In this document: positions 20,745 through 53,288 of the stretch, piece by piece
How the letters are laid out: the number at the start of each line of letters is the position of its first letter
How positions within the stretch are numbered: position 1 is the stretch's first letter
NCBI GenBank assembly: GCA_025999155.1
Contig: AP026679.1
Location: 514,135-578,134, forward strand
Reading direction: 5' to 3'
From: Candidatus Dojkabacteria bacterium
GTDB taxonomy: Bacteria > Patescibacteriota > Dojkabacteria > JAOAGR01
Length of the DNA: 64,000 nucleotides
Translations under genes and position numbers: made by a program
The notes under the pieces: generated by a model
The model's database searches: none
What the model was told of the DNA's origin: nothing
The model's input: only the letters and a program-made list of their open reading frames with translations

Positions 20745-21887
20745 TTATGTCTCAATAAGTTCGTTCATGTTAGTTAAATTTGAATTAAATGCTATAGCGA
20801 CTGGACTTCCTGTTAATGTCTTGAAATCTTGTAGACCTTTCGCTAGCTTCCGTATTGCGCCCCATCTTACCATTTGTGTAACGGGAATTCGTATGATATT
20901 ACTTAATGCTTGTAGTAATTTCGCCCTAGTATGTACTTTTGTACTTCCTGGTTGTGGTATAGTTTGTATAGTAGTAAACAAATTCGTGCTGAAACTTTTT
21001 AACCACAGATAAAATCCTAAAAATCGGTCATGTAAGATTACAGATTTTAGAAATGTGTTGCGCATACCAGGTGCTAAATCACTCTCGGCTAGACCTCTAG
21101 CCAATTCTCTGTACATTGCCGCCAGTTCCTTATCACCTGAATTGCGAAATATTAGAGAAAGAGTGTGGGCAATACCAGCATTTGAAGCCTCAGCTATCCA
21201 TGCACTATCGCTAACCAATGTACCAGTAGTTTCATCCTTCTTCTCCATGCGTACCCCGCAAGTATTAATCTTGTATCTTTTCACGAGGTGTGGTCCTAAT
21301 ACAGCTTGTAAAGCTTTAACCAAGCTGTAACCTGATACTCCTACAGATTTTGGTACGAATGGGTGTTTTTTACTAGCTTCATGTATAACACCACATCCAA
21401 ATGCAATTAATAGCAAAGCTCGTGCCACTTCTTTAGGAAGGCGAGGATTGCGTCCGCTAAAGGTTAGTACTCTATCAACATATACTCGGTTGTCAGTCTG
21501 TTTCATATATGGCAAAAGAGATGTGTATTCAATCCGACCATTATCTTCGACAACAAATCCTGCTAATATAGATTTGTTTGGATCTTCCGAAATACGCATG
21601 GTAGCAAATGGATACTCACCACCTGTACTGATAACAATATGTCTTGCTGGATCATCAATTCCAGGGATATAATCTGTTTCTGGGAAGACACAGCTGTTTA
21701 TGACTTCTTCATCTACTTTATCTCCTATAGATAGATATGGATTAGATTCTTTCATGGCTTTTGGGTTCACGATCCAATATGTCTTATCACGTCGTCCAAG
21801 CCTCTCGATAGCCTCCATTCTCGCTTCAGCTAAAGTTTTTTGGGCATTTCCATCGGGATTTCCCGAGCCACTACCACCGAAATGCAT
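20745..21887 (-). CDS. Hypothetical protein, no recognisable family; locally elevated GC
   Basis: A clean 380-aa ORF. The opposite strand is broken into ORFs of 90 aa or less. It begins with a Gly/Ser-rich segment (MHFGGSGSGNPDG). I recognise no catalytic or binding motif. Confidence 0.6.
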   Translation of the reverse strand: MHFGGSGSGNPDGNAQKTLAEARMEAIERLGRRDKTYWIVNPKAMKESNPYLSIGDKVDEEVINSCVFPETDYIPGIDDPARHIVISTGGEYPFATMRISEDPNKSILAGFVVEDNGRIEYTSLLPYMKQTDNRVYVDRVLTFSGRNPRLPKEVARALLLIAFGCGVIHEASKKHPFVPKSVGVSGYSLVKALQAVLGPHLVKRYKINTCGVRMEKKDETTGTLVSDSAWIAEASNAGIAHTLSLIFRNSGDKELAAMYRELARGLAESDLAPGMRNTFLKSVILHDRFLGFYLWLKSFSTNLFTTIQTIPQPGSTKVHTRAKLLQALSNIIRIPVTQMVRWGAIRKLAKGLQDFKTLTGSPVAIAFNSNLTNMNELIET

Positions 21888-26034: not shown

Positions 26035-27552
26035 ATGAACATATCAGAATTCCGAAATAAAGTAGAAAGCTCTACCAACGTCCTTTTAGTGCTGCCTTAT
26101 TTGGTAGATCCGGATAGTATTGCAACAGCTTCTTTGTTGTACAGGTTTTTAATCTCTAAGGGGAAAAAAGTAGATATTGCGGCCGAGAAAGTACCTGTAA
26201 CTATATTCAATAACATATTTTCATTGGCTGGTATTGAGGCTACCAAAATATTAAACAAAATTAGTCCTATACGTTATGTGATTAGTGTATCCAATGTAAG
26301 TGATAAAACTAGTATCGACTGGGAGCGAAGAGCTGATCAATTAGATATTAAACTTACTCCAGATGCCGGCATTGTTGATTTTGAAAGTATTACTTATTCG
26401 CGAGAAGGAGGTATTTATGATCTAGTCATTACTATAAATGTGGGTAGGTTATCTGACCTGGGCGAAATTTATACTTCTATACCAAAAAAATTTGAGGAAT
26501 ATGAAATAGTGTCTATTGGAGGAAATTTGAATCTAGAGGGTAGGGCAATAGTGTCCTTATCTCAAGATCTATGGATGTCTACAGAGCTTTTATATAATTA
26601 CGCAAATGATTTGGATCTTGAGATAGATCAAGCTAACGCCTCCATCATATTACACGGGATTATAGGGCAGACGCATGGTCTACAAAAAGTGTATAGTAAT
26701 AACACTTTTGCTATAGTGACAGATATCGCCAATAAATATCAATTAGATTTATCAACAATTATTAAGCAGTATTTTGCATCTGTTGGCATCGATAATGTAA
26801 GGGTGCAGGAGAAGATTCTAAATAATTTGAAATTTGATGAATCACGAAAGACAGTATATTCATATTTGACTAATCGGGATTTAGCTCAGTTAGGTATTTC
26901 TTTTAGTAACTTTGATTATAATTATTACTTACCATTTAGCGTAGATGGTAGAGAATATTATTCATTTATAGTTTTAGAATCAGGACTTTCATCTTTTGTT
27001 TACTTAGTTTCGCCTTTTGAATCCGAAGAATATATTGGGATCGTGAATAGGTCTAATGCTATAAGGAATAAGACTCTTGCATATATTTCTATTGATGCTG
27101 GTGCTATAGATGCTGCTAATCAAGTGCTTGGGGTAATTTCTGGTGGGACAATTTTACAAAGACAACAAGAAGAAAAAAAAGTATTTTCTAATGCATCTTC
27201 AATAACGCAGAACATTGATACTGTATCAGAGGGCTGGGGATATGATGATAATACTAATCAACAACCAATTTCAGCTCCAACAATTCCTTTAAATTCGCCG
27301 AACTCTGCAATATCAAGTAGTTCGGTGGGGGCATATATAATGACGAGTACTAACACTGTTTTTGATCAGGGATCTATTCATTCAACAGAGCATTCTGCTA
27401 ATCAAGGCTCTGCTTATCCTACAGATCCGTCACCCTTCCAGAAAGCAGGAGATTCGCAAATTAATTCTGTTGTATTACATTCATCCAATTTGCATACACA
27501 AACACAACATATGAATCCCTCTGCTCCTCCATTTACGCCAGCTAATACGTGA
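26035..27552 (+). CDS. Hypothetical protein; N-terminal region faintly DHH/NrnA-like but degenerate, C-terminal ~130 aa S/T/N/Q-rich low complexity
   Basis: 505 aa. LVLPYLVDPDSIATASLLY..GKKVDIAAEKVP resembles the NrnA N-terminus (H.NPDGDAIGS) but lacks the DHH motif. The tail reads SAPTIPLNSPNSAISSSSVGA...NSVVLHSSNLHTQTQH. Confidence 0.5.
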   Translation: MNISEFRNKVESSTNVLLVLPYLVDPDSIATASLLYRFLISKGKKVDIAAEKVPVTIFNNIFSLAGIEATKILNKISPIRYVISVSNVSDKTSIDWERRADQLDIKLTPDAGIVDFESITYSREGGIYDLVITINVGRLSDLGEIYTSIPKKFEEYEIVSIGGNLNLEGRAIVSLSQDLWMSTELLYNYANDLDLEIDQANASIILHGIIGQTHGLQKVYSNNTFAIVTDIANKYQLDLSTIIKQYFASVGIDNVRVQEKILNNLKFDESRKTVYSYLTNRDLAQLGISFSNFDYNYYLPFSVDGREYYSFIVLESGLSSFVYLVSPFESEEYIGIVNRSNAIRNKTLAYISIDAGAIDAANQVLGVISGGTILQRQQEEKKVFSNASSITQNIDTVSEGWGYDDNTNQQPISAPTIPLNSPNSAISSSSVGAYIMTSTNTVFDQGSIHSTEHSANQGSAYPTDPSPFQKAGDSQINSVVLHSSNLHTQTQHMNPSAPPFTPANT

Positions 27553-27653
27553 TGCAAAAATGTACAAGTCTCAATCTATTTTTGTCCTTTCTGTTAGTTT
27601 AATTCTGGATCTGTTATATGTGGTATATTAGTTTTGTATCTGAACTTTAGGGT

Positions 27654-28295
27654 TTGTGCTTTGTTAATCACTGCCTAATTATATATTCGTGTCACTCTTT
27701 ACAAACCGTTCAAAAAAGTATATTTTTGACTATATTACAGATGAAGCGTACTGAACAGAAAGACGTGAGGTTGATCTATGATTTGGTTGATGTAGCAATA
27801 TTGCCAGCAGCTTTAATGATTCTTAGTAAGGTCTTATCTATTACGGCCATCAATTATTTTCTTGGTCTTGACTGGAGCGTACGCAGTGTTGCAAACTCTG
27901 TATTCTCGATAGGTCTGGTTTACAATAGTGCTGAAGATGCTGTTTTAGTATCTAGTTATTCTAATCTGTTTATGTTTGTATCGGTTATTGCAGGTTGTAT
28001 GGTTGTAACCGGCAAATCTTTACTTTTAAATCATCGTAGAGCATCTCCTTATTTCGTCTTGAAATTAGCGAAGTATGACTTATTACATCTGTTGAAGTCA
28101 TCATTTCATATATATAAAGAAGCATTTGTCTGGACAACATTCTTAATAATTACTACTGTATATATTTTTGTTTCATTTCTTCTTGGTATGACTTATGGCT
28201 GGGTTGCTACGATGACGCTACTTTTTACTTTGATTTTTATTTGGATTATGGTACAAAATATAGAAGAAGAATTACTTTTTAATAATTACAAATAA
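27654..28295 (+). CDS. Hypothetical polytopic membrane protein
   Basis: About 5 predicted TM helices. The likely true start is the internal Met at 27741 (MKRTEQKD...). No recognised motifs. Confidence 0.5.
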   Translation: MCFVNHCLIIYSCHSLQTVQKSIFLTILQMKRTEQKDVRLIYDLVDVAILPAALMILSKVLSITAINYFLGLDWSVRSVANSVFSIGLVYNSAEDAVLVSSYSNLFMFVSVIAGCMVVTGKSLLLNHRRASPYFVLKLAKYDLLHLLKSSFHIYKEAFVWTTFLIITTVYIFVSFLLGMTYGWVATMTLLFTLIFIWIMVQNIEEELLFNNYK

Positions 28296-28306: not shown

Positions 28307-28945
28307 ATGCAATCGTCCAAATTCATAAAAAAAATAAATCAGATTTTAAATGCTTCTTCAGAGAGCTTTCTGCTTATTGCCTTAATTTCATTATTTGCGT
28401 TCCCTATCGTTATAGCAAAAAGTTTGGAGCCTGTAGTTGCATCCGAAGAGTCTGTAGTTTCGATTCCTACAATTATTCATTATACAGATAAAACGCCTGA
28501 TACAAATGGTCAGTTTGCTTCTACTGCAAACAATGAGTCCCAAAATGTTCTAGGCGCGTTTAATTCTGTTACCATAGATAGGATGTTGACTTTAGATGAA
28601 GAAATTCTGATGTCTTTTGATAGGGTGTATCAAAAGGTTTTACCTGATTTATATGTGCTCTCTGTAGAACAAGCCCCGACATTTAAAAAAGTTAGGCTCT
28701 TTAGTTTAAAGAATGAATTACCAGTAGATAAGAAGTTTTACATAAGCGTAACCGTACCAGATGGTCTAGCAAGTGTAGTGGGTAAGCAAAAGAACGTATA
28801 TATAAACGATAAAAAGTATGTTCTTGGTACTGATGATTTACCAACAGATGGTTTTATTTTAAAGCCGAATGAGGAGATCTCTGTATATATTGAAAGCTCT
28901 CGTACTACTACAACAAAGTTAGTATTTGGAGTAAAAGTAGATTGA
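28307..28945 (+). CDS. Hypothetical secreted/membrane-anchored protein
   Basis: 212 aa. An N-terminal signal-anchor (FLLIALISLFAFPIVIA) is followed by a beta-rich domain. No recognised family. Confidence 0.5.
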   Translation: MQSSKFIKKINQILNASSESFLLIALISLFAFPIVIAKSLEPVVASEESVVSIPTIIHYTDKTPDTNGQFASTANNESQNVLGAFNSVTIDRMLTLDEEILMSFDRVYQKVLPDLYVLSVEQAPTFKKVRLFSLKNELPVDKKFYISVTVPDGLASVVGKQKNVYINDKKYVLGTDDLPTDGFILKPNEEISVYIESSRTTTTKLVFGVKVD

Positions 28946-29090
28946 GTTTTATTTCTTTATAATTTCGATTATTACTTAATTTGTCTTTTTAGTGATTTGT
29001 ATGAGATCAACGCATACTGGTTAAATAATTCATATAGGCGGTAATAGAATAATGAGCTATTAAAAACACAAAATATATGTTCCTATTCAT

Positions 29091-30515
29091 TTACAAAATT
29101 TTTTCGGCAAAATATACTTTTAGTTCATTAACGTGTATTCTTTCCTGATTCATCGAGTCGCGATCTCGTACCGTGGTAGTGTTGTCCTCTAATGTTTGGT
29201 AATCTACTGTAATACAATAAGGTGTTCCGATTTCGTCTTGACGTCGGTAACGTTTCCCAATTGAACCTGATTCGTCATATTCACAAATATAAAGTTTTTT
29301 CAGATTGTTAAATATCTCTTTTGCTTTGCGTATTAGAACTTGTTTTTTCATGAGAGGTAGTATAGCTATTTTAACAGGAGATAATCTTGGATCGAGTCTA
29401 AGTAAAATACGTGTATCTTTTTTTCCGCTGCCTTCGTTGTCTGTTGTCAATATCTCTTGTTCATGATATGCATTGTCTAAAAACATCATTAACAGTCTAT
29501 TTAATCCTGCTGATGTTTCCATTATATGAGGTATGAATTTTTCGTTTCTTTCTGGGTCAAAAAAGTCAAGTTTGATTCCAGAATATTTAGAGTGTTGAGA
29601 TAAGTCCCAATTACCTCGAGCATGGATGCCTTCAACTTCGGCAAATCCGTCTAGAGAATCAAATTTATATTTAATGTCATAAGCATCTGTTGCATAGTGT
29701 GCGAGCTTCTCATGCTTGTACCATTGCAATTTATTTTCAGGTATACCGTATTCTAGATACCAGTTCCACCTAAACTGCTTCCACTCTTCATATTTTTGTT
29801 TTGTGTCATCTGGGTGATGGAAATATTGCATTTCCATTTGTTCAAATTCTCGTGTGCGATAAATGAACTGTCTTGCGACTATTTCGTTACGAAATGCTTT
29901 ACCAACCTGGGCTATACCAAAAGGAAATTTTGGATGTAATGTTTCAACAACATTTTTGTACTCAAGATAAATACCGCCACATGTTTCAGGTCGAAGATAT
30001 ACCACATCTTCATCATTTAGTTTGTCAACGGTAGAGCCCAAGTTAGATTTAACCATCAGAGAAAATCTTCTTGCTGATGTTAATTCTTTGCTGTCACAAT
30101 TAGGGCATTTCAAATTACCAGCATGCCGCAATGCATCAAGTTCGGCATTAATTTCATCAATTGAAGCTTTATCGTCAATCTTTATACCAAATTCTTCAAG
30201 CAAATGATCTGCTCTATACCGTAGTTTGCAATGTTTACAATCTACCATTGGGTCATCGAAGCTATCCACATGTCCCGAAGCTATCCATGTTTTTGGATGC
30301 ATGAATATTGCTGAATCAAGTAAAGTGACATCGTCTCTATCTTGTATCATTGATTTAATCCAGGCATTTTTTATGTTTTCTTTAAGTAAATATCCGTAAT
30401 GTCCGTAGTCGTAAATACCACCCAATCCTCCGTATATTTCACTTGATGGATAGACAAACCCTCGTGTTTTACAGAATGAAGTAAATTTATCTAAAGTTAA
30501 TCTTTGCATGTGCAT
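29091..30515 (-). CDS. glyQS: Glycine--tRNA ligase (dimeric, eukaryote/archaea-like GlyRS)
   Basis: The motifs FVYPSSEIYGGLGGIYDYGHYG, RPETCGGIYL and the class II motif 3 region match GlyRS. It contains a C-x2-C...C-x2-C insertion (CKHCKLRY...CPNCDS). Confidence 0.9.
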   Translation of the reverse strand: MHMQRLTLDKFTSFCKTRGFVYPSSEIYGGLGGIYDYGHYGYLLKENIKNAWIKSMIQDRDDVTLLDSAIFMHPKTWIASGHVDSFDDPMVDCKHCKLRYRADHLLEEFGIKIDDKASIDEINAELDALRHAGNLKCPNCDSKELTSARRFSLMVKSNLGSTVDKLNDEDVVYLRPETCGGIYLEYKNVVETLHPKFPFGIAQVGKAFRNEIVARQFIYRTREFEQMEMQYFHHPDDTKQKYEEWKQFRWNWYLEYGIPENKLQWYKHEKLAHYATDAYDIKYKFDSLDGFAEVEGIHARGNWDLSQHSKYSGIKLDFFDPERNEKFIPHIMETSAGLNRLLMMFLDNAYHEQEILTTDNEGSGKKDTRILLRLDPRLSPVKIAILPLMKKQVLIRKAKEIFNNLKKLYICEYDESGSIGKRYRRQDEIGTPYCITVDYQTLEDNTTTVRDRDSMNQERIHVNELKVYFAEKIL

Positions 30516-30761: not shown

Positions 30762-31826
30762 TTACACAACAGTCAAAACCTCACAAGAATCCTTTTTACA
30801 CACGATCATATCTTCTATTCGAATTCTGTGTTGTGACTTTGTTAGGATTTCAGGCTCTAATGTAAAAACCATATTTTCTTGTAATTCAAAGTCTTTATAT
30901 TTTTCGGTCACTAAAAAGGGAGCTTCATGCACATCAAAGCCAATTGAATGGCCTAAATCCTGAAATTCCAAAGAATCTCCATTCAGTCCTAAAGCATTTA
31001 ATTTCTCTATGTACATTTCCTTTATGTTTTCTAATTTCACTCCAGGCCTAAGAGTGGAGATAATTTCATAATGAACCTGTTTTAATAGGTCGTATTCGTT
31101 CTTTATATTATTTTCCGTAGTAAAAAACATTCGTGTAATATCGGTATACAGTCCTTTGTAAATTAGACCCATATCAATACAAATCGAACTACCTTTTTTA
31201 ATGACTTTAGTAGTAGGAAATTTAACAGTGGAGTTTAGTAAGTCATCATCTGTAGTTATGGATACTGGGAATGCCAGGCCTTCTGCTTTGGAAAAAATAT
31301 TGATCTTCAGTTCTCTTTCAATTTCCTCTTCAGTGGTATCTTTTTGTATATATGTGTTTACCTGAGATATAATTGAGCTAAGTATTTGAGCTCCTTCGCG
31401 TAATGTAAAAATTTCTTCGTCTGTTTTTTGCCACAAAAGGCCAGCGACAGAGTCATTTAGATCTACAAATTTATAATCATCATTTATGAGCGATCTAATG
31501 TGATGATAAGGTACATCTCCTATTAACCCGACAATTTTGGCTTGACCAATAGCTTTTTGAATACCAGGAGTTGGATTTGTCTCATTAATTTCTATTATTT
31601 CGACATCTCCTACTACCCTAGCAAGGTTCGCTACAAGATAGCTTATTTCGAGAAAACCATAACTACCGTTTTTATTTATAAAAATATAGTTATAGAGCAG
31701 GGGTCTAACGCGAAACAACCAATTACTGTATTTGTACTTTTCGTTAGTGGAGTAGATCAGTAAGCTATCAAGTTGATAATGACTAAGGATACTCTCCAAT
31801 AACCGTAATCTATGCGAGTTAATCAT
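30762..31826 (-). CDS. pepP: M24 family Xaa-Pro aminopeptidase/prolidase
   Basis: Creatinase-like N-domain plus the pita-bread C-domain, with HSIGFDVHEAPFL and FTLEPEI carrying the metal ligands. Confidence 0.75.
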   Translation of the reverse strand: MINSHRLRLLESILSHYQLDSLLIYSTNEKYKYSNWLFRVRPLLYNYIFINKNGSYGFLEISYLVANLARVVGDVEIIEINETNPTPGIQKAIGQAKIVGLIGDVPYHHIRSLINDDYKFVDLNDSVAGLLWQKTDEEIFTLREGAQILSSIISQVNTYIQKDTTEEEIERELKINIFSKAEGLAFPVSITTDDDLLNSTVKFPTTKVIKKGSSICIDMGLIYKGLYTDITRMFFTTENNIKNEYDLLKQVHYEIISTLRPGVKLENIKEMYIEKLNALGLNGDSLEFQDLGHSIGFDVHEAPFLVTEKYKDFELQENMVFTLEPEILTKSQHRIRIEDMIVCKKDSCEVLTVV

Positions 31827-32074
31827 AACTGGTAATTATTGTAATTGTTAATTAATTAGTCTGCAAGATGTACTTCTCCAAGTTGGTGACACATCGAATA
31901 TATTTTACAAGCAGTCCTTATACTCCAGTCCGATTCCCGTGTGCATGTAAATTCTAATATTGAGTAATCTATACAATAAGTCAAAACCTAATGAAAGGCT
32001 ATTTTGCTGACAGTGCTTACGTCACTTACTTCCTATTTCTTATGTTTAGGCAAAAATGTAATTTTCCAGCACTT

Positions 32075-33400
32075 TTAATTGTATTTTTCGGCAGTTGTTG
32101 GAAATGGGTTTACTAGCACCTCCGGCCGATCGGGAAATCGCCCTAGAATTTCTTCTGCTGCTTTGAGTACATATGTTCTTACGCCGTCATCCAATAATAT
32201 TAACTTGGACCCACCATCAGATGATGTACCCTTCAAAACATCTCCGAACACACCCTTAATAAAGAGATATTCAGGACCTATATAAGGTGGATGCCCCACT
32301 ATTAATCCTTCCGATGCATTTCTCTGTATATTATCTAAAAACGACATCAGATTCCAGGTCCATCCCTGAATTCGACCAGTGGTTTCTATATATAGCTTTG
32401 GTCCGCCATTTCGTGTGCTTTTCCTATTCAGATAAACTGTAGACAAACCTATTCCTGCATTATTAGGGCGCAATACAGGTATTCGCCAAAACGCAATAAG
32501 ACCCTGATCCTGATTAAAGGTTTCCCCATCAGGATTAATTTTCTGCAGTTCCATGTGAAAATCTACAGCAGTTTGAACAAACTGATTTCGGTCATCAATA
32601 CTTGCAGCTATACATCTGAATATATTGCTCACATCTATTATAGGATGCTTATACACCCACTCCAGTGCCCTTCCTATATTCGTATGTATACCACGATTTT
32701 CCTTGCTTTCCAACATCGCCCAGACCCAGACGGCAGCGAATGATGAAGCCACATATAAAACAGGTATCGAATGTTCAGGATCCTTCGGTGTCACATGTAC
32801 TCCGAAAGAATCCTCCGAAGGATGATAATACAAAATACTTTTTTGTGGGAAATTTTGATATGTTCCTTGCTCGAGCTGTTGTAGCAGTAGCGCAGATGCT
32901 ACGATCCTCAGACTATCAAATCTTTCCCGATTTTGTTTATCCTGGTATTCTGCAAAAGTTGGACTACCTCGGTACCGAGGTCCTCTTAATGCGTCGACTA
33001 AATTTCTCAATGCAGTAGGAGACATTGTAGCTGTTGATGCCATTGTCCCAGGGCGAATATATGGCAATAACCACTTAGGAACAAGATTCTCTCGGGTAGT
33101 CGCTAAGATATTACTAGAGAACTTTATTACACAAGGTTCATACCCTTTTGCCAACAAACCTTCCATTTTTTGTCTGTAGCATCCTACTGCTTGATCTCCG
33201 CTAAGATTATGGTACGCGCCGTTTACTGGAACCTGTTCGGAAGGCCACATTTCGGATACCCCCACGTACCCTCTATACCGATTTCTACGAAGATCATAAC
33301 CCTTGTATGCCGAACCACCAATATTGTAATATTGCGTTTCTAGGATACCTTCTAGGAATTGTTCTGCGTTGATCCCCAAATAATTATAGATCGATTTCAT
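32075..33400 (-). CDS. Hypothetical protein, no recognisable family; locally elevated GC
   Basis: A 441-aa ORF with only short ORFs on the opposite strand. Its composition (about 43% GC) differs from the flanks (33-37%). No motifs recognised. Confidence 0.6.
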   Translation of the reverse strand: MKSIYNYLGINAEQFLEGILETQYYNIGGSAYKGYDLRRNRYRGYVGVSEMWPSEQVPVNGAYHNLSGDQAVGCYRQKMEGLLAKGYEPCVIKFSSNILATTRENLVPKWLLPYIRPGTMASTATMSPTALRNLVDALRGPRYRGSPTFAEYQDKQNRERFDSLRIVASALLLQQLEQGTYQNFPQKSILYYHPSEDSFGVHVTPKDPEHSIPVLYVASSFAAVWVWAMLESKENRGIHTNIGRALEWVYKHPIIDVSNIFRCIAASIDDRNQFVQTAVDFHMELQKINPDGETFNQDQGLIAFWRIPVLRPNNAGIGLSTVYLNRKSTRNGGPKLYIETTGRIQGWTWNLMSFLDNIQRNASEGLIVGHPPYIGPEYLFIKGVFGDVLKGTSSDGGSKLILLDDGVRTYVLKAAEEILGRFPDRPEVLVNPFPTTAEKYN

Positions 33401-33570
33401 AGCTACTCATGTAGATATCAACTACTCTCTAGTGATGTGGGTGGATTATAGCATGATTTTAGTAAGTTGTCTATAGGTATAACTATATATCGCATGTGCA
33501 ATGTGTTAGTATAATAAAACAGTTAAAACGAGCTGTTTTGCTTGTTTTCTCGTTTTGATTTTACTATTGT

Positions 33571-34464
33571 GTGAATATGCATTTGAGTTTTTTTAAGATT
33601 AAAGATTCTTGCTACACTATAAATGTTCCGTACTATGAAATACTTGGTTTTTATGATGGTCCTACGATTTTTTTGTCATCAGGATTCTGTGCACAGGATA
33701 TAAATAGTGTGGACATATTACGTAATTTTATACGTGTATTAAAAACTTCTGAATTATCTAAGAAGATTAAAGGCAGACTTTTAATTTTCCCTATTATTGA
33801 TGTGATAAATTTTGATTATTATAAAGATCGTGATCTAAATAAACGCAGTGTTAAACTTAAACAACCTAATTTACAGAATAATTTATCACGCCAGGTTTTA
33901 GGAGAATTAAGCTATAACTTTTTTCGCAAAAGTGATGCTGGTATTCTTTTTGTTGATTCTCATTCATACTTACACGCCTTACCTTTTGTCAAAGCATATA
34001 AAAATAATGATTTAGATTTTTTGAAGACCTTCGGCAATAAATATATCTTACAATCAACAAAGAATAATTTCTTTATAAGTAATCTGTTTATCAGTTATGG
34101 CACTAGAGTACTTACTGTTGAAGTTGGTTGTGCAGGTTTTCTGGTTTTGAATTCTGTCAAAGATCTGATGCGAAATATCAAAATATTTTTGGCAGAACAT
34201 AAGGCGTTGGATGCAGATATAAAAAGGCCAAATAATTTTATTATGTTAGATTCAAAAACTGGTATCAAAGCGAAAAAAAACGGGGTTATAAATTTAGATT
34301 GTAATTTAAAGCAAAAAGTACAAAAAGGGGATAGATTAGGTAGTATTTATTATCCTACTCTTCAAACAAGTGAAATAATAAAAGCAGATAAAACAGGGAT
34401 AGTTTTTGCTAAGAGAATAAAAAACCTAGTACAAACTGGACAAACTATAGTAACTATTGTTTGA
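33571..34464 (+). CDS. AstE/AspA (succinylglutamate desuccinylase/aspartoacylase, M14-like) family protein, apparently degenerate
   Basis: LLIFPIIDVINFDYYKDRDLNKRSV matches the family motif (N..A...R...DLNR). The position of the HGNE zinc-ligand motif reads SSGFCAQD. The C-terminal beta-hybrid reads GDRLGSIYYP..GIVFAKRI..GQTIVTIV. Confidence 0.4.
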   Translation: MNMHLSFFKIKDSCYTINVPYYEILGFYDGPTIFLSSGFCAQDINSVDILRNFIRVLKTSELSKKIKGRLLIFPIIDVINFDYYKDRDLNKRSVKLKQPNLQNNLSRQVLGELSYNFFRKSDAGILFVDSHSYLHALPFVKAYKNNDLDFLKTFGNKYILQSTKNNFFISNLFISYGTRVLTVEVGCAGFLVLNSVKDLMRNIKIFLAEHKALDADIKRPNNFIMLDSKTGIKAKKNGVINLDCNLKQKVQKGDRLGSIYYPTLQTSEIIKADKTGIVFAKRIKNLVQTGQTIVTIV

Positions 34465-34465
34465 G

Positions 34466-36070
34466 TTAGTATTGATACATACTATTCAAAAATTCTTCAT
34501 TAGATTTAGTTGTCTTCATGCGATCTATCAAAGCTATACTACCATCATCCCCCAACGCCTCAAGCATTTTTCGAATCTTCCAGGAATGATGTAGCATATC
34601 TTGACTTAATAGTAATTCTTCATTACGTGTCCCTGATTCCATTAAATCTATCGCTGGAAAATTTCTTTTATTCGCCATTTTTCTGTCTAGTTTTAATTCC
34701 ATGTTTCCAGTACCTTTAAATTCTTCAAAGATCACATCATCCATCTTAGATCCTGTCTCCACAAGAGCCGTAGCAACGATAGTGAGTGAGGCTCCGTTTT
34801 CAAAATTTCTTGCTGCTCCAAAAAATCTTTTAGAAGGGTATAGAGATACAGGATCTAAACCTCCGGAAAGTGTGCGACCTGATGCAGGAAGAGCTACGTT
34901 GTATGCTCTTGCAAGTCTAGTCAGTGAATCCATAAGAATAATTACATCATGACCAATTTCAACAAGCCTTTTTGCTCTTTCTAGAGATAATTCAGCTACT
35001 AAGACTTGATCTTGCGGAGACTCATCAAAATTAGATGCATATACAATACCTTGGACAGATCTTTCTATATCAGTGACTTCTTCAGGTCTTTCGCCGATCA
35101 GGACTACCATTAATAAAGCTTCCGGGTGATTTGCATTGATACCTTTAGCAATGTCTTTTAAAAGTGTTGTTTTCCCTGCTTTGGGAGGTGCTACAATCAT
35201 TGCTCTTTGTCCAAATCCTATCGGAGCAAGAAGATCAATAATTCTATTGGCTATTGGATATTGACCGCACTCGAGTTTTATTTGTTTATTCGGATAAACT
35301 GGCTTTAATTCATCAAAATTCGGGCGATCCTTTAATTGGTCGACTGGGATGTCGTTGACATTTTTTATCCATAAAAGGGAGTAATATCTTTCATTCTCTT
35401 TCGGAAGTCTTGCTATACCTGTCACAAGGTCGCCTTTTCTTAATTTGAGTTTTTTCACTTGAGATATGGAGATATAAGTGTCTTTATTTGATGGGGCTAG
35501 TTTCGAAGATCTTAGCACACCATGTGTACCGTCAGCCATTATTTCCAAAATGCCGCTTACTTCGACGGTTGGTTCGTTGAGTACTTTCGCATTTATGCTG
35601 TTAGAGTTAATTCCGTTGGTAGGATTATTTTGAGTAGATTGATGTACATTATTAGTTTGATTGTTGCTAGCATTGGTGGATGTCTGGGATCCTTGGACAT
35701 TTTCAGCAGAAACTTGTGTTGATTCCTGTGCACCAGATGTCGATTCATTTGGAAGACCTATCGCTTCTTTGGCGGTAGAATCGCTTTTTTGAATATTTAG
35801 ATTATGTAAATTGGGATCCGATTCATTAGCTATTTTTTTGATCTTGGAATTTGATTTTGAGTTTTTCGACTCTGAATCCTGTTTTGTTGATGACTGTTCT
35901 TTTTGTCCGTGTTGGTAGTCTTTTGTACTACTTTTGTCAGACGAATATTTTTGAGAAATCAGTTTGATGAGTTCCGTTTTTGTTTTTTTACTTATGCCTA
36001 GAATTTTGAGTGATTTTGCAATTTCTTTTAGTTCCTTTAGTGTTTTTGCTGACAAATTATGTACATCCAT
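34466..36070 (-). CDS. rho: Transcription termination factor Rho with N-terminal insertion domain
   Basis: Walker A GQRAMIVAPPKAGKTTLLKDIA, and LMVVLIGERPEEVTD. The protein is 534 aa and carries a ~130-aa N/Q/S/T-rich insert between the N-terminal helix bundle and the cold-shock-like RNA-binding domain. Confidence 0.9.
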   Translation of the reverse strand: MDVHNLSAKTLKELKEIAKSLKILGISKKTKTELIKLISQKYSSDKSSTKDYQHGQKEQSSTKQDSESKNSKSNSKIKKIANESDPNLHNLNIQKSDSTAKEAIGLPNESTSGAQESTQVSAENVQGSQTSTNASNNQTNNVHQSTQNNPTNGINSNSINAKVLNEPTVEVSGILEIMADGTHGVLRSSKLAPSNKDTYISISQVKKLKLRKGDLVTGIARLPKENERYYSLLWIKNVNDIPVDQLKDRPNFDELKPVYPNKQIKLECGQYPIANRIIDLLAPIGFGQRAMIVAPPKAGKTTLLKDIAKGINANHPEALLMVVLIGERPEEVTDIERSVQGIVYASNFDESPQDQVLVAELSLERAKRLVEIGHDVIILMDSLTRLARAYNVALPASGRTLSGGLDPVSLYPSKRFFGAARNFENGASLTIVATALVETGSKMDDVIFEEFKGTGNMELKLDRKMANKRNFPAIDLMESGTRNEELLLSQDMLHHSWKIRKMLEALGDDGSIALIDRMKTTKSNEEFLNSMYQY

Positions 36071-36191
36071 ACAATTAATAACTGTTGGAAAAATAAATTT
36101 TTATAAAACAGGGGGAACTTAATCCACGATCGATTATATACATACAGAAACAAGCTGTCAAATAATAAGTCTATTACTTAGGTGTGAATAA

Positions 36192-37493
36192 ATGATACAC
36201 TGTACCATGTCTACGCGTCGTAAGATAAAAAATATTCTTATTCTCGCTGGTGGTGATAGCGGGAGGTTTTGGCCTTTAGATAATAAAATTTTATGGAAGT
36301 TTTTAGGGATGCCCCTCATAATACACATACTAAAACAGTTAGATAAGTATGGTGATAATATTTATATTATTGGAAATCCAAATAATATTGATTTGATACA
36401 AGAAGTTGTCCTTCAGTATGGATATGCTAATAGAGTCAAAGTTTTGATGCAGAATAGTAAAATGGAAGGTCAAGCTGGTGCGGTAGATTCTGTACAAAAT
36501 GTCGTGAATGGGGAGCTTCTAATCGTAAATGCCTCTGACTATCTTGATTTTTCCGTATTAGAGAAGATTACCACAGAATTACACCGTGAACGTCGTATAG
36601 TTTTGTTTGGAAAAAAATATCCTGATTACTTTCCAGGAGGTTATTTTAAATTTAATGAATCGAATAAAGTTGTTGAAATCATCGAAAAGCCGGGCAAAGA
36701 CAATATGCCATCGGATGTCGTTAAGCTAGTACTAGATTATTTTTCTGATAGTTCTATATTGTTTGAGTATTTATCCAGCACATTAAGCGACAAAGATGAT
36801 ATTTACGAACAAGCATTGAATCGAATCTTGAAGCATGCTGGATACGATAATGATTATCATGTATATGAAGGAGAATTTGTAAGTTTAAAGTATCCTTGGC
36901 ATGTACTCTCAATGATGAAAACTTTTTTGGGGTCTATTAATGCTCAAAGTATTGCTTCTTCGGCAAGAGTCTCTCAAAAGGCAGAAATCATTGGTAATGT
37001 GCATGTAGGCGAGAATGTCGTGATCGGAGATTATGTCAAAATAGTGGGGCCTACTTTTATTGATGATAATGTCTTTATTGGTGATTTTTCTCTGATTCGT
37101 GAGTCTCATATAGGTAAAGAATGTTTAGTAGGTTCATATAGTGAAGTAACAAGAACTTATATTGGAGATAAAGTGTCCTTACATCGAAATTATGTGGGAG
37201 ATTCTGTTTTAGGCAACAATGTATTATGCGGGGCTTTTGCCGTGACCGCGAATTTAAGATTTGATGGAAAAACAGTACATTCTATTGTAGGTGATAGTCT
37301 TATAGACTCCTATTTACCAAAGCTTGGTGCTATTATCGGACATAACTCAAAAATAGGAATTAATACGTCTTTTTTTCCTGGCGTAAAAGTAGGTAGAAAT
37401 ACGTGGATATGGCCAGGTGAAAAGGTGAGTCATGATATTGCGGACAATATGTTTTTTAAAGATGGTAATGCAATAAGTAATACTAAACAATAA
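36192..37493 (+). CDS. Sugar-1-phosphate nucleotidyltransferase with C-terminal left-handed beta-helix (hexapeptide) domain (GlmU/GCD1-like)
   Basis: The N-terminus ILILAGGDSGRFWPL is a G-x-G-x-R NTP-transferase motif. The C-terminal third has [LIV]G-x4 hexapeptide repeats (VHVGENVVIGDYVKIVGPTFIDDNVFIGD...). Confidence 0.6.
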   Translation: MIHCTMSTRRKIKNILILAGGDSGRFWPLDNKILWKFLGMPLIIHILKQLDKYGDNIYIIGNPNNIDLIQEVVLQYGYANRVKVLMQNSKMEGQAGAVDSVQNVVNGELLIVNASDYLDFSVLEKITTELHRERRIVLFGKKYPDYFPGGYFKFNESNKVVEIIEKPGKDNMPSDVVKLVLDYFSDSSILFEYLSSTLSDKDDIYEQALNRILKHAGYDNDYHVYEGEFVSLKYPWHVLSMMKTFLGSINAQSIASSARVSQKAEIIGNVHVGENVVIGDYVKIVGPTFIDDNVFIGDFSLIRESHIGKECLVGSYSEVTRTYIGDKVSLHRNYVGDSVLGNNVLCGAFAVTANLRFDGKTVHSIVGDSLIDSYLPKLGAIIGHNSKIGINTSFFPGVKVGRNTWIWPGEKVSHDIADNMFFKDGNAISNTKQ

Positions 37494-37504
37494 TAAAACC
37501 GATT

Positions 37505-38479
37505 ATGAAAAAAGTTACTGTTTTAGGAGGCGGGACAGGAACATATGTTGTTTTATCTGGATTGAAAAATTATCCTTTGGATCTGGCAGTCATTGTTAAT
37601 ATGGTGGATTCTGGCGGGTCTACAGGAAGGTTACGAGATGCTTTGAAAGTACTACCTCCTGGAGATTTGAGACAATGTTTTCTTGCCTTATCTGAAATAT
37701 CAGATTTATGGAGAAAGTTATTTTTGTATCGATTTGATAGTGGAGAATTAAAAGGCCATAATTTTGGTAATTTATTCTTTGCTGCTTTAGAGAAGGTTTG
37801 CTCAAATTATGATGAAGTTATACAAGCTGCATCTTCGTTTTTCAATATTAAAGGTCAAGTTATTCCGGTTACTTATGAAAATGTACACTTGGTAGCAGAC
37901 TACACTGATGGCAAAACTATTATTGGTGAAGGTAATATTGACGAAAATAGGTCAGATGACGTCATAATTCAAAATGTATATTTATCATCACCTGTAAACG
38001 CTACGCAAAAAGCTATAGAGAGAATTCTTGAATCTGAATATATAATTATTGGGCCGGGAGATATTTACACGAGTATTATTCCAGTTTTATTACCACTTGG
38101 TATACAAGAAGCCTTTTTAAAGACTAGGGCAAAGATTATTTTTATTATGAATCTAATGACAAAAAAAGGACAGACAACCAATTTTACGGCTCAGGACCAT
38201 GTCGATAGTGTAGAGAAATATCTTGGTAGAAGTATTGATTGTGTGTTATTAAACAGTGAGTCTATTCCACAAGATATACTGGATTATTATGCAAGTCATG
38301 GAGAAAAGACCGTGAAGGATGATTTGGATGAAAAAAAATACACAATTATTCGAAAAGATATTCTGGATAATAAACCAGTAAAATTCGATAAAAATGACAT
38401 TCTCTATAGAAGTTTATTACGCCATGACTCACAAAAACTTGCACGTGTGCTATTCAATATATTCGAAAATCTATCTTGA
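37505..38479 (+). CDS. yvcK: YvcK/CofD-family (UPF0052, gluconeogenesis factor / UDP-sugar-binding) protein
   Basis: VTVLGGGTGTYVVLSGLK...AVIVNMVDSGGSTGRLRD is the characteristic N-terminal signature of the CofD/YvcK family. Confidence 0.75.
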   Translation: MKKVTVLGGGTGTYVVLSGLKNYPLDLAVIVNMVDSGGSTGRLRDALKVLPPGDLRQCFLALSEISDLWRKLFLYRFDSGELKGHNFGNLFFAALEKVCSNYDEVIQAASSFFNIKGQVIPVTYENVHLVADYTDGKTIIGEGNIDENRSDDVIIQNVYLSSPVNATQKAIERILESEYIIIGPGDIYTSIIPVLLPLGIQEAFLKTRAKIIFIMNLMTKKGQTTNFTAQDHVDSVEKYLGRSIDCVLLNSESIPQDILDYYASHGEKTVKDDLDEKKYTIIRKDILDNKPVKFDKNDILYRSLLRHDSQKLARVLFNIFENLS

Positions 38480-38494
38480 TAATCGCTTATAACA

Positions 38495-40345
38495 CTATTC
38501 GACTGTTACTGATTTAGCAAGATTTCGAGGTTTATCTACATTTAGACCTCTGATGGTGCCTACATAATACGCAAACAATTGGAGTGGTATTACGCTTAGA
38601 ATAGGATTAAATTCGTCGAATGTCTGAGGTATACATATATAATCATCCAATATTGTTGGTAAATATTTATCAGATTCACTAATTATCCCTATTGTTTTGC
38701 CATGTCTAGATTTGACTTCATTAATATTGCTCACACTTTTTTCATATAGATAATCTTTTGGAGCTACAAATATGACAGGCATGAATTCATCTATTAGTGC
38801 AAGTGGCCCGTGTTTCATTTCTCCTGCAGCATATCCCTCGGCATGAATATACGAGATTTCTTTTAGTTTTAATGCCCCTTCGAGAGCTATAGGGTAATTT
38901 ATTCCTCTGCCTAAATATAAAAAGTTTGCTTTTGTTACATATTTATTTGCTAATACAAAAATAGATTCCTTTTGATCCAAAATTTGCTGTACTTTATTCG
39001 GAATGTCACTTAGTTCATTAAGCATTTTTTTCATTTTAGTAGTAGACAATAGCTTTTTACCATTAGCTAAATACAGACTTAACAATACTAAGATTAGCAC
39101 AGTATTTGTGAATGTTTTTGTAGCTGCTACTCCTATTTCTTGATTTGCATTCATATAAATGATTCCATCGCTTTCACGACAGATAGAGCTATTTGGTATG
39201 TTTGTAATACTAAGAATTTTTGCTCCATTGCTTTTAGGAATTTTTAGAGCTTCTAGAGTATCTGCAGTTTCTCCTGACTGGCTAATAGCTATAATCATGT
39301 CATTTTGGTGTATTATTGGGCTACTATATCGAAATTCTGATGCATACTCGACCGAAGTAGGTATTTGTGCTAGTTTTTCGATTAAATATTTTCCGATCAA
39401 ACCTGCATTCCAACTACTACCACAGGCTGTAATAATTATTCTATTTATTTTTTTGATATTTTCTTGAGAGAAGAAGTTAAAATATGGGAAAATAATATCA
39501 TCATTATCAATGATTATCGATTTTTCTAATGCATTTTTTAGATACAGTGGCTGCTCAAAAATTTCTTTTTCCATGTACGACCGGTATCCCTGCAAATCGG
39601 AAAACATCAAGTCTGAATCTGTTACGACGGGTCGTATATCGATAGTGTTGCCTTCTAAATCATAAATATTGTATGCTAATCCGTCGATTATACCGATATT
39701 TTCATCATTTAAATAGATTACTAGATTTGTGTATTTTATGAATGCATAAATGTCGGAACCTACGAACATTTCTCCTTTTCCCAAACCTATTGTAAGGGGA
39801 CTGCCTTTTCGTGCCACAAAAATTTTATTAGGCTCGTACTCTGAGATTAAAGCTATCGCATAAGTACCCTTGACTTGTTGTAATGCTTTGGTAAAAGAGG
39901 TGAGTAAATTTAGTTCTTCTGTCGTATAAAAATACTCTATCAAGTGTGCAAGAACTTCAGTATCTGTTTCTGATACTAATTTATATCCTTTTTCTTCTAA
40001 AAATTCTTTTAATTCGACATAATTTTCGATAATGCCATTATGTACTATGGCTATTTTCCCACTAGCGCTTGTATGAGGGTGAGCATTCTGTTCTGATACC
40101 TTACCATGTGTAGCCCATCGTGTGTGTCCTATTCCTAATTTGAACGAAACATTGCTAATATTTTTCAACACTTCCTTTTCAAGGACGGAAACCTTTCCTA
40201 CTTTTTTGTAAACATGGATTTTTTCTTTTCTATCAATAAAAGCAATACCTGCTGAGTCATAACCACGATATTCGAGATTATAAAGCCCATTTAAAACAAC
40301 AGACTTTACATCTTTATTTCCAATATAACCTACAATTCCGCACAT
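38495..40345 (-). CDS. glmS: Glutamine--fructose-6-phosphate aminotransferase
   Basis: N-terminal MCGIVGYIG with catalytic Cys2 and two SIS domains. 616 aa. Confidence 0.9.
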   Translation of the reverse strand: MCGIVGYIGNKDVKSVVLNGLYNLEYRGYDSAGIAFIDRKEKIHVYKKVGKVSVLEKEVLKNISNVSFKLGIGHTRWATHGKVSEQNAHPHTSASGKIAIVHNGIIENYVELKEFLEEKGYKLVSETDTEVLAHLIEYFYTTEELNLLTSFTKALQQVKGTYAIALISEYEPNKIFVARKGSPLTIGLGKGEMFVGSDIYAFIKYTNLVIYLNDENIGIIDGLAYNIYDLEGNTIDIRPVVTDSDLMFSDLQGYRSYMEKEIFEQPLYLKNALEKSIIIDNDDIIFPYFNFFSQENIKKINRIIITACGSSWNAGLIGKYLIEKLAQIPTSVEYASEFRYSSPIIHQNDMIIAISQSGETADTLEALKIPKSNGAKILSITNIPNSSICRESDGIIYMNANQEIGVAATKTFTNTVLILVLLSLYLANGKKLLSTTKMKKMLNELSDIPNKVQQILDQKESIFVLANKYVTKANFLYLGRGINYPIALEGALKLKEISYIHAEGYAAGEMKHGPLALIDEFMPVIFVAPKDYLYEKSVSNINEVKSRHGKTIGIISESDKYLPTILDDYICIPQTFDEFNPILSVIPLQLFAYYVGTIRGLNVDKPRNLAKSVTVE

Positions 40346-40367
40346 TTTGTTTGATTAAGAAATATAA

Positions 40368-41285
40368 TTAATGATTTTTATCAATTATAGGAGTTAACCA
40401 ATTCGTGTATTTTTCAATTTTACCTTTTACTGCATCAAAATAGATTTGTTTAATTTGATTTGTAATAGGTCCTGGTTTACCAGTGTTAATTTTGATTCCG
40501 TCTACTTCTACCACTGGAGATATTTGAGCACCAGTACCACACAAGAATATTTCGTCTGCTATATAAAGTTCTGTGCGTGATATTGATCTTTCTTCTACAT
40601 TTATATTTAAGTCCTTTGCTATGGTTTTGATAGCGTGTCTTGTAATACCTTCAAGTATGTCATCACTCAGTGAAGGCGTGATAAGAGTGTTATTTCGGAC
40701 TATAAAAATGTTTTCAGCACTGCCCTCTGCAATATTCCCATCCTGATTTAGTACTATTGCTTCATCGGCACCAGCCTTTAATGCTTCAGTTTTTGCTAAT
40801 GCGCTATTAACATATGCCCCCGCTATTTTAAGCATTGGCGGAATCATGTTATCTTTTAAACGTGTCCAAGACGCAATTTTTGTTTTAATACCATCGTCTG
40901 TATCTATGTAATTACCCAAAGGTAAGGTGAAAATAGCTATTTCTGCCGAGTATCCTACTAGTTTCGGACTTATGGCCTCATCTGCAAAATATACAATTGG
41001 TCGTATATACACATCTTCTTTATGTTGGTTTATTAAGACTAGCTGTTTCGTAATTTCAATTAGTTCTTCTAAACTTTCATTTATATTCATGTTTAAAACT
41101 TTAATATTGCGTAACAGTCTCTGGTAGTGTTCTTTAACAAAAAGGCCATACATCGTATCTGAATCTTTATTGTAATAAGCTCTTATACCCTCAAATATCG
41201 CAGTACCATAATGAAATGAATTAGTTCTGATGCTAATTTTTGCATCGTTGTCTTCTATAATTTTGCCGCGGAAATAAACTTTCAT
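40368..41285 (-). CDS. ilvE: Class IV PLP aminotransferase (branched-chain amino acid / D-amino-acid aminotransferase family)
   Basis: 305 aa. EGIRAYYNKDSD..GLFVKEHYQRLLRNIKVL follows the BCAT fold-type IV pattern. It lies 22 nt upstream of glmS on the same strand. Confidence 0.7.
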   Translation of the reverse strand: MKVYFRGKIIEDNDAKISIRTNSFHYGTAIFEGIRAYYNKDSDTMYGLFVKEHYQRLLRNIKVLNMNINESLEELIEITKQLVLINQHKEDVYIRPIVYFADEAISPKLVGYSAEIAIFTLPLGNYIDTDDGIKTKIASWTRLKDNMIPPMLKIAGAYVNSALAKTEALKAGADEAIVLNQDGNIAEGSAENIFIVRNNTLITPSLSDDILEGITRHAIKTIAKDLNINVEERSISRTELYIADEIFLCGTGAQISPVVEVDGIKINTGKPGPITNQIKQIYFDAVKGKIEKYTNWLTPIIDKNH

Positions 41286-41401
41286 CGTCTTATTTTAATG
41301 GTTTTTTAAGTTTTTGTCTCACACTGTACATTAATTTAAAAGCATTTTGATGATATAAAAATTCCCTGATTTCACATGATTGTTTATTTAAGTTTTTTAT
41401 C

Positions 41402-42490
41402 TCAATTTTCTCGATCAGAATCTATTCTTAAAAGAAAATCTTGTAATATTTCAAAGTATTGTTCTAGGCCTTTAATACTGACCCATTCTTCATCGCCACC
41501 TATATTTCCTCCCACTGGACCAAATTCTATACCAGGCACATTAATATTCATGTAATGACGAGCATCCGATGATCCATTAGCATATCTTATTTGTGTGGAT
41601 GTCTGAATTATAAATTTAATGGATTTCGTAAGATTTTGGATAAATACATTGTTTTCCTCTGTATATAAAGATGGCTCGTTAAACATTATTTCAACAGATG
41701 TATCTTTGGGAAGTATTTGGTGTATTTCTTGCAAAACTCTGTCTTTATCTTCCGGAGTATATCGTATATCAAGCCATATTGTGCAATCATCAGGAATCTT
41801 ATTAAAGGCATTATTTGATGTTTCTATTCTTGCTAAATTAATCGTTGTTTGCCATTTTGCTTCTTTAGGGTTATTAAACCTTTTGAATAATTTACTTAAA
41901 AAATTATGAGCTAATAAAATAGCATTTTTGCCTCGCCATGGATAAGCTCCATGTGCTGTTATTCCTTTAAAGTTTATTTTTAGCCAAATAATACCTTTTG
42001 CTTTATTCACAATATCGAAATTCGTAGGTTCTCCACATATTACGAAATCAGCAGTAACGCCATTTAAAATTTGATATTTAGTACCATTGAAGCCTCCAAT
42101 TTCTTCATCTGTGACCAGTTGTAGTCCTAAAGGATACGATACTTTATCTACCATATTAAGAAATGCATAAATGAGGCAAGCGGCACTGGCCTTCATGTCC
42201 AATGCTCCAACTCCAATTAATTTATCCCCTTCTATTCTTGGTTCATAAAGGTCTTCCCGACCGGGTACTACATCAAGATGTCCGTTTAGTATAAGTTTAA
42301 ATTTACTTGGTCTTGTATTTGCCTTATAGATAAGTGCGCTTGGTTTACCTTCATTTTCAAATCTTTCTACTGTGTAGTTGTTAAGATAACTTAGGGCTAG
42401 CTTGAGAATTTCATCTAGTTTATCTTTTGATTCAGCTGTAGATCGTATACGTATAAATGCTTGTGATAGTTTTAATATGTCTTCAAGCAT
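41402..42490 (-). CDS. M20 family metallopeptidase (ArgE/DapE-type deacylase)
   Basis: LNGHLDVVPG and GVGALDMKASAACLIYAF match the M20 active-site motifs (HxDVV; the GxxD metal-bridging residue). Confidence 0.7.
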   Translation of the reverse strand: MLEDILKLSQAFIRIRSTAESKDKLDEILKLALSYLNNYTVERFENEGKPSALIYKANTRPSKFKLILNGHLDVVPGREDLYEPRIEGDKLIGVGALDMKASAACLIYAFLNMVDKVSYPLGLQLVTDEEIGGFNGTKYQILNGVTADFVICGEPTNFDIVNKAKGIIWLKINFKGITAHGAYPWRGKNAILLAHNFLSKLFKRFNNPKEAKWQTTINLARIETSNNAFNKIPDDCTIWLDIRYTPEDKDRVLQEIHQILPKDTSVEIMFNEPSLYTEENNVFIQNLTKSIKFIIQTSTQIRYANGSSDARHYMNINVPGIEFGPVGGNIGGDEEWVSIKGLEQYFEILQDFLLRIDSDREN

Positions 42491-46181: not shown

Positions 46182-46258
46182 TGGAGCGAGCGATCGGATT
46201 CGAACCGACGGCCTTCTCCTTGGCAAGGAGACGTTCTAGCCAACTGAACTACGCTCGC
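46182..46258 (-). tRNA. tRNA-Gly (anticodon GCC), CCA encoded
   Basis: Reverse complement GCGAGCG-TA-GTTC-AGTTGGCTA-GAAC-G-TCTCC-TTGCCAA-GGAGA-AGGCC-GTCGG-TTCGAAT-CCGAT-CGCTCGC-T-CCA. The cloverleaf is good, with anticodon GCC. Confidence 0.85.
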
Positions 46259-52366: not shown

Positions 52367-52385
52367 TCATCCAGCGCTGTATAAT

Positions 52386-52826: not shown

Positions 52827-53115
52827 GTTCTTTGTTTAAGTTAATTAAAAATCCTGCATAGTCTAACATACTAATGGTTATTTGCAATATATTTGTGTAA
52901 AAGATGTATAAATAATTCTGTATTTATTTGTTCTAAAGCATCTTGTAGTTATTTTAGATTACTTAATAGGTGATCAATACAATTGTCATTGAATTTTGAG
53001 GTAGATATGATCCAACCGGTAGGCATGAATGTAGAATAAAGTTTATGCAACAACGAAAACCTACAAATATATTTGATTTAATGTCATGATATTTTGTTTC
53101 TTTTACGTCCTTTCA

Positions 53116-53288
53116 ATCTCTGAAACTTGGACCTCTAAACCGTGTTTATTAGGACTTTTATTACACACCCACGGATGCTAAGAACAGACTCGACTTGCAA
53201 ATGCTTGATAGAGTCTATTTGTTGTGCATTAGTACACATTGTACAAATCCAGTACTATCACGCAATAGCAAAAAGCCTAGGCATCGAC
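53116..53288 (-). pseudogene. Truncated duplicate of the aspS 5' region (about 90% identical to 52071-52268)
   Basis: Direct alignment by eye: atctctgaaacttggacctctaaacc...ggatgctaagaacagactcgacttgcaaatgcttgatagagtctatttgttgtgcatt agtacacattgtacaaatccagtactatcacgcaatagcaaaaagcctag versus the aspS copy. No intact ORF. Confidence 0.6.

Follow-up and report, generated by a model that had tools for sequence, protein, structure and literature searches.

Bacterial loci whose content is shuffled and diversified between strains include hsdS, which sets the specificity of type I restriction-modification systems, the variable genes of pilins and flagellins, the O-antigen genes wzx and wzy, and the hotspots of defence islands. 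The Patescibacteria, or Candidate Phyla Radiation (CPR), combine minimal genomes with a life spent attached to other microbial cells; to our knowledge, the CPR genes for host range or phage resistance are largely unknown, and we know of none described for the Dojkabacteria. Here we consider a gene, called X in what follows, from a Candidatus Dojkabacteria metagenome-assembled genome (MAG), in a stretch of 64,000 nucleotides that we refer to as the window (contig AP026679.1, positions 514,135 to 578,134). The open reading frame (ORF) listing agrees with the initial annotation of this DNA in placing a 441-aa gene with an ATG start at 32075-33400 on the minus strand, and its product is an exact match to BDQ04983.1, "hypothetical protein KatS3mg084_0501". 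Comparison with relatives establishes, at the level of sequence, that X is a real, expressed-looking and lineage-restricted gene, which behaves as a swappable cassette and carries the signature of diversifying selection around a conserved core. The reading that we favour, with moderate confidence, is that X is a native gene of its lineage, presumably expressed yet dispensable, and a hypervariable cassette at a fixed slot whose product presents a recognition or conflict surface.

From the perspective of the polymorphic loci named above, the likenesses are several. X has highly divergent alleles in one invariable place, with conserved core genes on either side, its alleles appear to be exchanged through conserved flanks with abrupt boundaries of divergence, its dN/dS ratio exceeds 1 on part of the protein, and it is apparently dispensable, one allele being pseudogenised. 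By contrast, every X allele falls in a single orphan family that resembles none of those systems, and the cassette encodes one soluble protein, unaccompanied by partner genes, in a CPR genome of 738 kb. Moreover, whereas hotspots usually hold unrelated cargo, the slot occupied by X always holds a homologue.

Allele classes at a fixed slot

In six related loci (L001-L006, the family members with retrievable genomic context), the same syntenic slot is filled by an X homologue in every case, in the order Rho, a 295-297-aa orphan, X, an M24 peptidase and glycyl-tRNA synthetase (GlyRS). When 19 window proteins were searched against these loci with tblastn, the neighbours of X were 69-100% identical across all six; for L003 the values include 96% for DnaE, 95% for LysRS, 94% for M24 and 93% for GlyRS, and for L004, 98% for the NTP-transferase, 98% for the aminotransferase and 95% for Rho. 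Against this background, the identity of X to the window protein is 100% in L002 and 89% in L001 and L006, but only 32% in L004 and L005 and 25% in L003. By these identities X falls into at least three full-length allele classes that are mutually 25-35% identical, type A (window and L006), type B (L003) and type C (L004 and L005), with a putative fourth represented by P0003, a 307-aa fragment 34% identical to X. Divergence on this scale leaves a core: about 35 residues are invariant across all five aligned family sequences, 65 positions of X are invariant across the allele classes, and the conserved blocks read VPxNGxYH, P[IV]IDxS..F, IVG[HN]PP[YF]xGxEY, DDG[VI] and, at the C terminus, NPF..KY. 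The ORF is intact in 5 of the 6 loci. The exception is the type-C allele of L005 (L005:5860-6966), which is called as fragments of 91 and 247 aa and carries two premature stops, TTA to TGA at codon 27 and TCG to TAG at codon 138; because of these stops, X appears to be dispensable.

The initial annotation had recognised no motifs in X, and database searches bear this out: the best Pfam match, DUF6226, has an E-value of 0.13 and falls below threshold, and sequence searches of NCBIfam, PADLOC, PHROGs and PDB gave no match. A word-indexed search of 5.8 billion clusters returned only X itself and one relative at 89% identity, and an exhaustive HMMER scan of 1.84 billion representatives returned 4 clusters in total (P0001, P0003, P0004 and P0005). 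No relative of X was found in scans of GTDB species genomes and JGI metagenomes or of IMG/VR viral contigs, nor by tblastn against phages and plasmids, and the cluster searches gave no homologue in the rest of the phylum. Literature searches under Dojkabacteria, hypervariable Patescibacteria genes and KatS3mg MAG found nothing on X. The family is thus confined to one narrow lineage, a genus-level group of hot-spring Dojkabacteria, and this lineage is itself isolated in the databases, with homologues of the flanking M24 peptidase dropping from 93% directly to 40% identity or less. The initial annotation had named assignment to a conserved housekeeping family as the outcome that would speak against an acquired or fast-evolving gene; no such family emerged from any of these searches.

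Substitution patterns within allele classes

The two type-A coding sequences from the window and L006 differ by 56 substitutions and a 3-codon indel. The Nei-Gojobori method (NG86) apportions these into 50.8 non-synonymous and 5.2 synonymous changes (dN 0.051, dS 0.018), an omega (dN/dS) of 2.9, and other estimators give 3.6 (LWL85), 4.2 (YN00) and 2.5 (maximum likelihood), as against 0.00-0.31 for 12 neighbouring genes, with dS of 0.03-0.62. The departure from neutrality is significant in a binomial test (p = 0.0065), as is the difference from the pooled neighbours (506:852; Fisher p = 2e-16), and a spectrum-preserving simulation on the X codons expects 14-15 synonymous changes where 4-7 are observed (p = 1e-4 forward, 0.017 reverse). 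The type-C pair, L004 and L005, is independent of the first. These loci are 99.6% identical over 11.7 kb, with 43 differences; 14 of the 43 fall in X, and all 14 are non-synonymous, including the two nonsense changes in L005, with no synonymous change (p = 0.026).

The placement of the replacements is as informative as their number. The 46 type-A replacements leave all 65 invariant positions untouched, whereas at the variable positions 34 of 197 are hit (p = 1.3e-6). Charge is altered by 33 of the 46, and the changes are spread over residues 2-413, or about 410 codons. On these codon comparisons X is apparently under positive diversifying selection with an untouched conserved core, and within an allele class its replacements accrue 3-6 times faster than neutral sites. 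The earlier suggestion of a fast-evolving gene is therefore well founded, given omega values of 2.5-4.2 against 0.00-0.31 in the neighbours and alleles of 25-35% identity amid flanking proteins that are about 85-98% identical.

An orphan gene with two premature stops in one allele might also be taken for a decaying or unconstrained ORF, either under relaxed selection or non-coding altogether. This we consider very improbable, since omega is significantly greater than 1 rather than close to it, the invariant positions have been spared without exception, the ORF and its motif blocks persist in all loci but L005 despite 25-35% identity, the predicted promoter is conserved (see below), and the other frames over X are closed, the longest alternative ORF being 117 aa.

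A mutational origin for the non-synonymous excess has also to be weighed, namely targeted hypermutation by a diversity-generating retroelement (DGR) or something similar. CPR genomes are rich in DGRs, the substitutions concentrate at codon positions 1 and 2 (25:23:8 over the three positions in type A, 3:10:1 in type C), and A is involved in 41 of the 56 type-A differences. However, the codon-position ratio is that expected from a non-synonymous filter alone, and the spectrum is not adenine-specific, 15 of the 56 changes being without A. The changes extend over some 410 codons and not over one short C-terminal variable region. Moreover, there is no reverse transcriptase among the ORFs of the 64-kb window and no template-like or silent-donor repeat of any X segment within it. 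Of the explanations considered here, DGR-type mutation is the least probable.

Cassette edges, composition and origin

The alignments with the three allele classes delimit the variable unit, and the features to which they refer are as follows (window coordinates).

32075-33400, minus strand: X, a 441-aa soluble orphan protein with a conserved core and a putatively diversifying surface
33445-33473, minus strand: predicted sigma-70-type promoter of X (TAGACA, 17-nt spacer, TG-extended TATAAT; 11/12 matches)
33401-33444, minus strand: allele-specific 5' leader of X, 100% identical in type-A L006
32035-32074, minus strand: allele-specific 3' tail after the X stop; type-C similarity returns at about 32034
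31827-32034, minus strand: the part of the spacer between X and M24 that is conserved, at about 90% identity to the type-C loci
31761-33610, no strand: putative cassette unit, whose neutral divergence between window and L006 is close to zero; approximately the block that is unalignable with L003
30762-31826, minus strand: M24 (Xaa-Pro aminopeptidase-like) gene, the conserved downstream flank, 93-94% identical in relatives
33571-34464, plus strand: p297, a divergently transcribed orphan, the conserved upstream flank, 70-92% identical in relatives

DNA similarity to the type-B locus ends at 33576 and returns at 31777, leaving 31778-33575 unalignable, and similarity to the type-C loci ends at about 33445 and returns at 32034. 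Aligned directly, window and L004 agree at about 90% of positions across the -35 and -10 elements, diverge directly after the -10 box, and realign some 40-55 nt past the X stop. The promoter is kept in L004, and L003 has a consensus TTGACA-17-TATAAT at the equivalent position, so that a strong predicted promoter is conserved in all allele types. The loss of type-C similarity after the -10 box appears to mark the upstream recombination edge, and the position near 32034 the downstream one. With edges just after the -10 box and past the stop, the variable unit would thus be essentially the transcription unit, placed under a conserved strong promoter. A separate promoter-like site for the M24 gene is found at 31851-31822, in the region of the X-M24 spacer.

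The comparison within type A bears on the timing of exchange. Between the window and L006, the spacer upstream of X has no mismatches and that downstream a single one (247/248 identical), while dS in the genes adjoining block 31761-33610 is 0.13-0.23. The low neutral divergence of the block relative to these genes implies that the two lineages came to share the cassette recently, through recombination, and exchange of the X cassette among strains by homologous recombination is supported by these alignments. The remainder of the window-L006 alignment is a mosaic, with 93 mismatches per 250 nt at 35750-36000 (the N terminus of Rho) and 50-71 per 250 nt at 28750-29500 (the 3' end of GlyRS and p212), next to nearly identical segments at 27500-28250, 29750-30250 and 35000-35250; this pattern suggests that recombination among strains is frequent.

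The initial annotation had drawn attention to X by its composition, given as about 43% guanine plus cytosine (GC) against about 35%, and by spacers said to be unusually long. The elevation of GC stands, although the figures are 41.6% for X and 34.1% for the window. With a z of about +2.6, X comes second in GC among the 42 window ORFs that reach 150 aa, and just 2% of sliding windows of equal length attain its level. Relative to the ORF means, GC is raised at the first (50.7% vs 44.5%), second (40.3% vs 32.5%) and third (33.7% vs 25.9%, sd 3.0) codon positions, the last being the highest of all 42 ORFs, and glycine, alanine, arginine and proline (GARP) residues make up 26.5% of X as compared with 18.8%. 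The spacers do exist, at 248 and 170 nt, but to call them unusually long was an overstatement: they rank 9th and 14th of the 41 gaps between window ORFs of 150 aa or more, where the median gap is 94 nt.

Raised GC at all three codon positions, spacers above the median and the lack of homologues in the rest of the phylum are what might be expected of a gene recently acquired from a GC-richer donor as a small genomic island, and an acquired gene was one of the two options named in the initial annotation. This origin is improbable and, in our judgment, largely refuted. A foreign island is difficult to reconcile with a homologue in the identical slot of all six related loci. Repeats in 31700-33700 amount to chance-level pairs of 12-20 nt, none of them bracketing X in direct or inverted orientation, so the remnant attachment-site (att)-like repeats for which the initial annotation had advised inspecting the flanks were not found. 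No integrase, transposase or other mobile-element gene is present in the window; the neighbours of the locus are GlyRS, the M24 peptidase, p297 and Rho, and the only tRNA genes, at 495-566 and 46185-46258, leave the nearest one 13 kb away. The searches of phages, plasmids, viral contigs, GTDB genomes and JGI metagenomes yielded no relative that could represent a donor. Finally, all X allele classes have 41-42% GC, and hence this composition characterises the family as a whole and does not point to a donor. What survives of the proposed acquisition is allele exchange within the lineage. The raised GC may stem from amino-acid composition or, alternatively, may reflect biased gene conversion under frequent recombination; it would then mark a hotspot of recombination and selection and not foreign DNA.

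Two other ORFs of the window stand out in GC. The 380-aa orphan at 20745-21887 on the minus strand, without a Pfam match, ranks third (39.6%); it has no sequence similarity to X, and the idea that the two are paralogues was dropped. The highest value (43.7%, with 57.6% at the second codon position) belongs to 54081-55727 on the plus strand, which encodes a 548-aa Laminin_G_3/ConA-like protein and is flanked by stretches of 1.7 kb (52367-54080) and 1.6 kb (55728-57299) without an ORF of at least 150 aa.

Taken as a native, hypervariable cassette, X can be understood as follows. Strains exchange the transcription unit as a whole via the conserved flanks, between one edge directly downstream of the -10 box and another about 40 nt beyond the stop. 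The protein would keep a fixed biochemical core, which replacements avoid while mostly altering surface charge, and the surface would be under negative-frequency-dependent or arms-race selection from a recognising antagonist or partner. The most plausible candidate for this role would be a protein encoded by a phage or some constituent of the bacterium that hosts the episymbiont, and X itself would be a single-gene determinant of immunity or recognition specificity, or else the target of such an antagonist. That X founds a new CPR family of single-gene specificity or immunity factors, in which the allele sets the phage or host that is resisted or engaged, is a tentative proposal that we would not yet call likely. 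In any case, X defines a protein family outside all current database models, and would point, strongly and without bias, to an interface of conflict or recognition in a 738-kb genome, as a concrete candidate for testing.

Several points weigh against reading X as a conflict or recognition cassette. The defence hidden Markov models of PADLOC-DB gave 0 families at E-values up to 1 for all 5 members of the X family, and X has no match to any phage family in PHROGs and no sequence match to any solved structure in PDB; the structure model itself is of low confidence, with a predicted local distance difference test (pLDDT) score of 53.6. The selection tests comprise two sequence pairs with few synonymous changes, and MAG or metagenome consensus sequences could mix strains. 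Moreover, very fast divergence in situ, and not swapping, could account for part of the separation into classes of 25-35% identity, because at least one other spacer, that between M24 and GlyRS, is likewise unalignable with L003. Finally, a possible conserved pairing with M24 genes in outgroups, considered in the next section, hints that the role of X may lie in metabolism and not in conflict.

Protein features and the M24 peptidase

X has no signal peptide, no consistent transmembrane segment and a pI of 8.2. AlphaFold2 models made from three near-identical sequences were unusable (pLDDT 35), and those from five diverse sequences reached the score of 53.6 noted above, with a predicted template modelling score (pTM) of 0.57 and an alternating alpha/beta pattern. 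The model points to a predicted alpha/beta core with the invariant His, Asp and Glu at strand ends. Foldseek searches with it against PDB and BFVD gave no match.

In 5 of 5 outgroup loci, one of them labelled Peregrinibacteria, an unannotated protein of 436-544 aa without a Pfam match lies directly upstream of the M24 homologue:

L007:6375-7997, upstream-of-M24 protein
L011:3367-4998, upstream-of-M24 protein
L009:1949-3583, upstream-of-M24 protein
L010:1378-2748, upstream-of-M24 protein
L012:3673-4983, upstream-of-M24 protein

These proteins are only 15-25% identical to one another, and an EY...DDG(V/I) block is weakly common to them and X. In hhalign comparisons of the X family with the outgroup proteins, the same block of 37-43 columns scored E-values of 7e-4 (probability 26%) and 3e-3 (probability 10%), and by shuffle calibration most sequences ranked within the top 3%. 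If the homology is real, X would be a local, unusually fast-evolving member of a wider M24-paired family. From this follows a different reading of the gene, as a conserved functional partner of the M24 peptidase, an enzyme with an alpha/beta fold that acts on peptides or amino acids in metabolism and evolves very fast in CPR bacteria, possibly ligase-like and ATP-dependent with a Rossmann core of the type found in BshC or the class I aminoacyl-tRNA synthetases (aaRSs). We regard it as rather unlikely. The hhalign probabilities reach just 10-26%, X has its own strong predicted promoter and a 248-nt spacer before M24, and an omega above 1, allele classes and pseudogenisation would be unexpected for an ordinary metabolic enzyme; for the ligase in particular, Foldseek returned nothing, the Pfam models of BshC and aaRSs were unmatched, and the N-terminal block of X gave chance-level matches only against PDB. 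A partnership with M24 and an arms-race cassette are not mutually exclusive, and both could hold.

BshC combines a Rossmann core with CP1 and CP2 connecting peptides and a coiled-coil dimerisation domain, and its enzymatic activity has never been shown in vitro (PMC4360819). Sequence identity between X and BshC (PDB 4WBD) or class I aaRS catalytic domains is 6-8%, and Foldseek, Pfam and PDB sequence searches, the first with the low-confidence model, made no connection between them. Unlike these proteins, X has no HIGH (HxGH) or KMSKS motif and no coiled-coil or anticodon domain; there is only a single conserved His, in the PxNGxYH of the X family. The idea of a HIGH motif was dropped as unsupported at the sequence level after the comparison of the N-terminal block with PDB.

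A second candidate came from the IVGNPPF/IVGHPPY block, which follows a predicted beta-strand in the manner of motif IV, (D/N/S)PP(Y/F), of the amino-methyltransferases (the N6-adenine and N4-cytosine enzymes and HemK). NPPF is found in P0003 and P0009, and HPPY in the window protein and P0005. Unlike the methyltransferases, however, X has no conserved glycine-rich motif I (FxGxG) for binding S-adenosylmethionine, and in the window protein an H stands where the catalytic N/D/S would be. The idea was dropped, with no motif I, no methyltransferase match in the Pfam and PDB profile searches, and no such motif in the possible outgroup homologues. In the absence of fold, sequence or profile support for an aaRS, BshC or methyltransferase relationship, the predicted fold of X is a lead only.

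Some minor observations concern the neighbourhood of X. The orphan p297 has only a weak PYNP_C match and the lowest GC of all ORFs (28.9%); its identity to the window protein is 70% in L003 as compared with 91% in L001, L004 and L006, and in L005 it is broken by single-base indels. At 33525-33548 on the plus strand, 23 nt 5' of the p297 start, there is a terminator-like hairpin whose 9-bp stem runs into a stretch of T residues. No gene precedes it on that strand, and it may have a regulatory role or have arisen by chance. The region of the X stop (32052-32084) matches that just 5' of the Rho start (36069-36102) in inverted orientation over 34 nt, at 85% identity and E 0.002; the match is AT-rich and possibly due to chance. 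Farther out, GlmS alone is missing from L003 (4784-4980), and the block of NTP-transferase, CofD, GlmS, aminotransferase IV and M20 peptidase genes (window 36192-42490) is missing from L001 and L006, where a 42-aa M20 remnant is all that remains of it (7017-7353).
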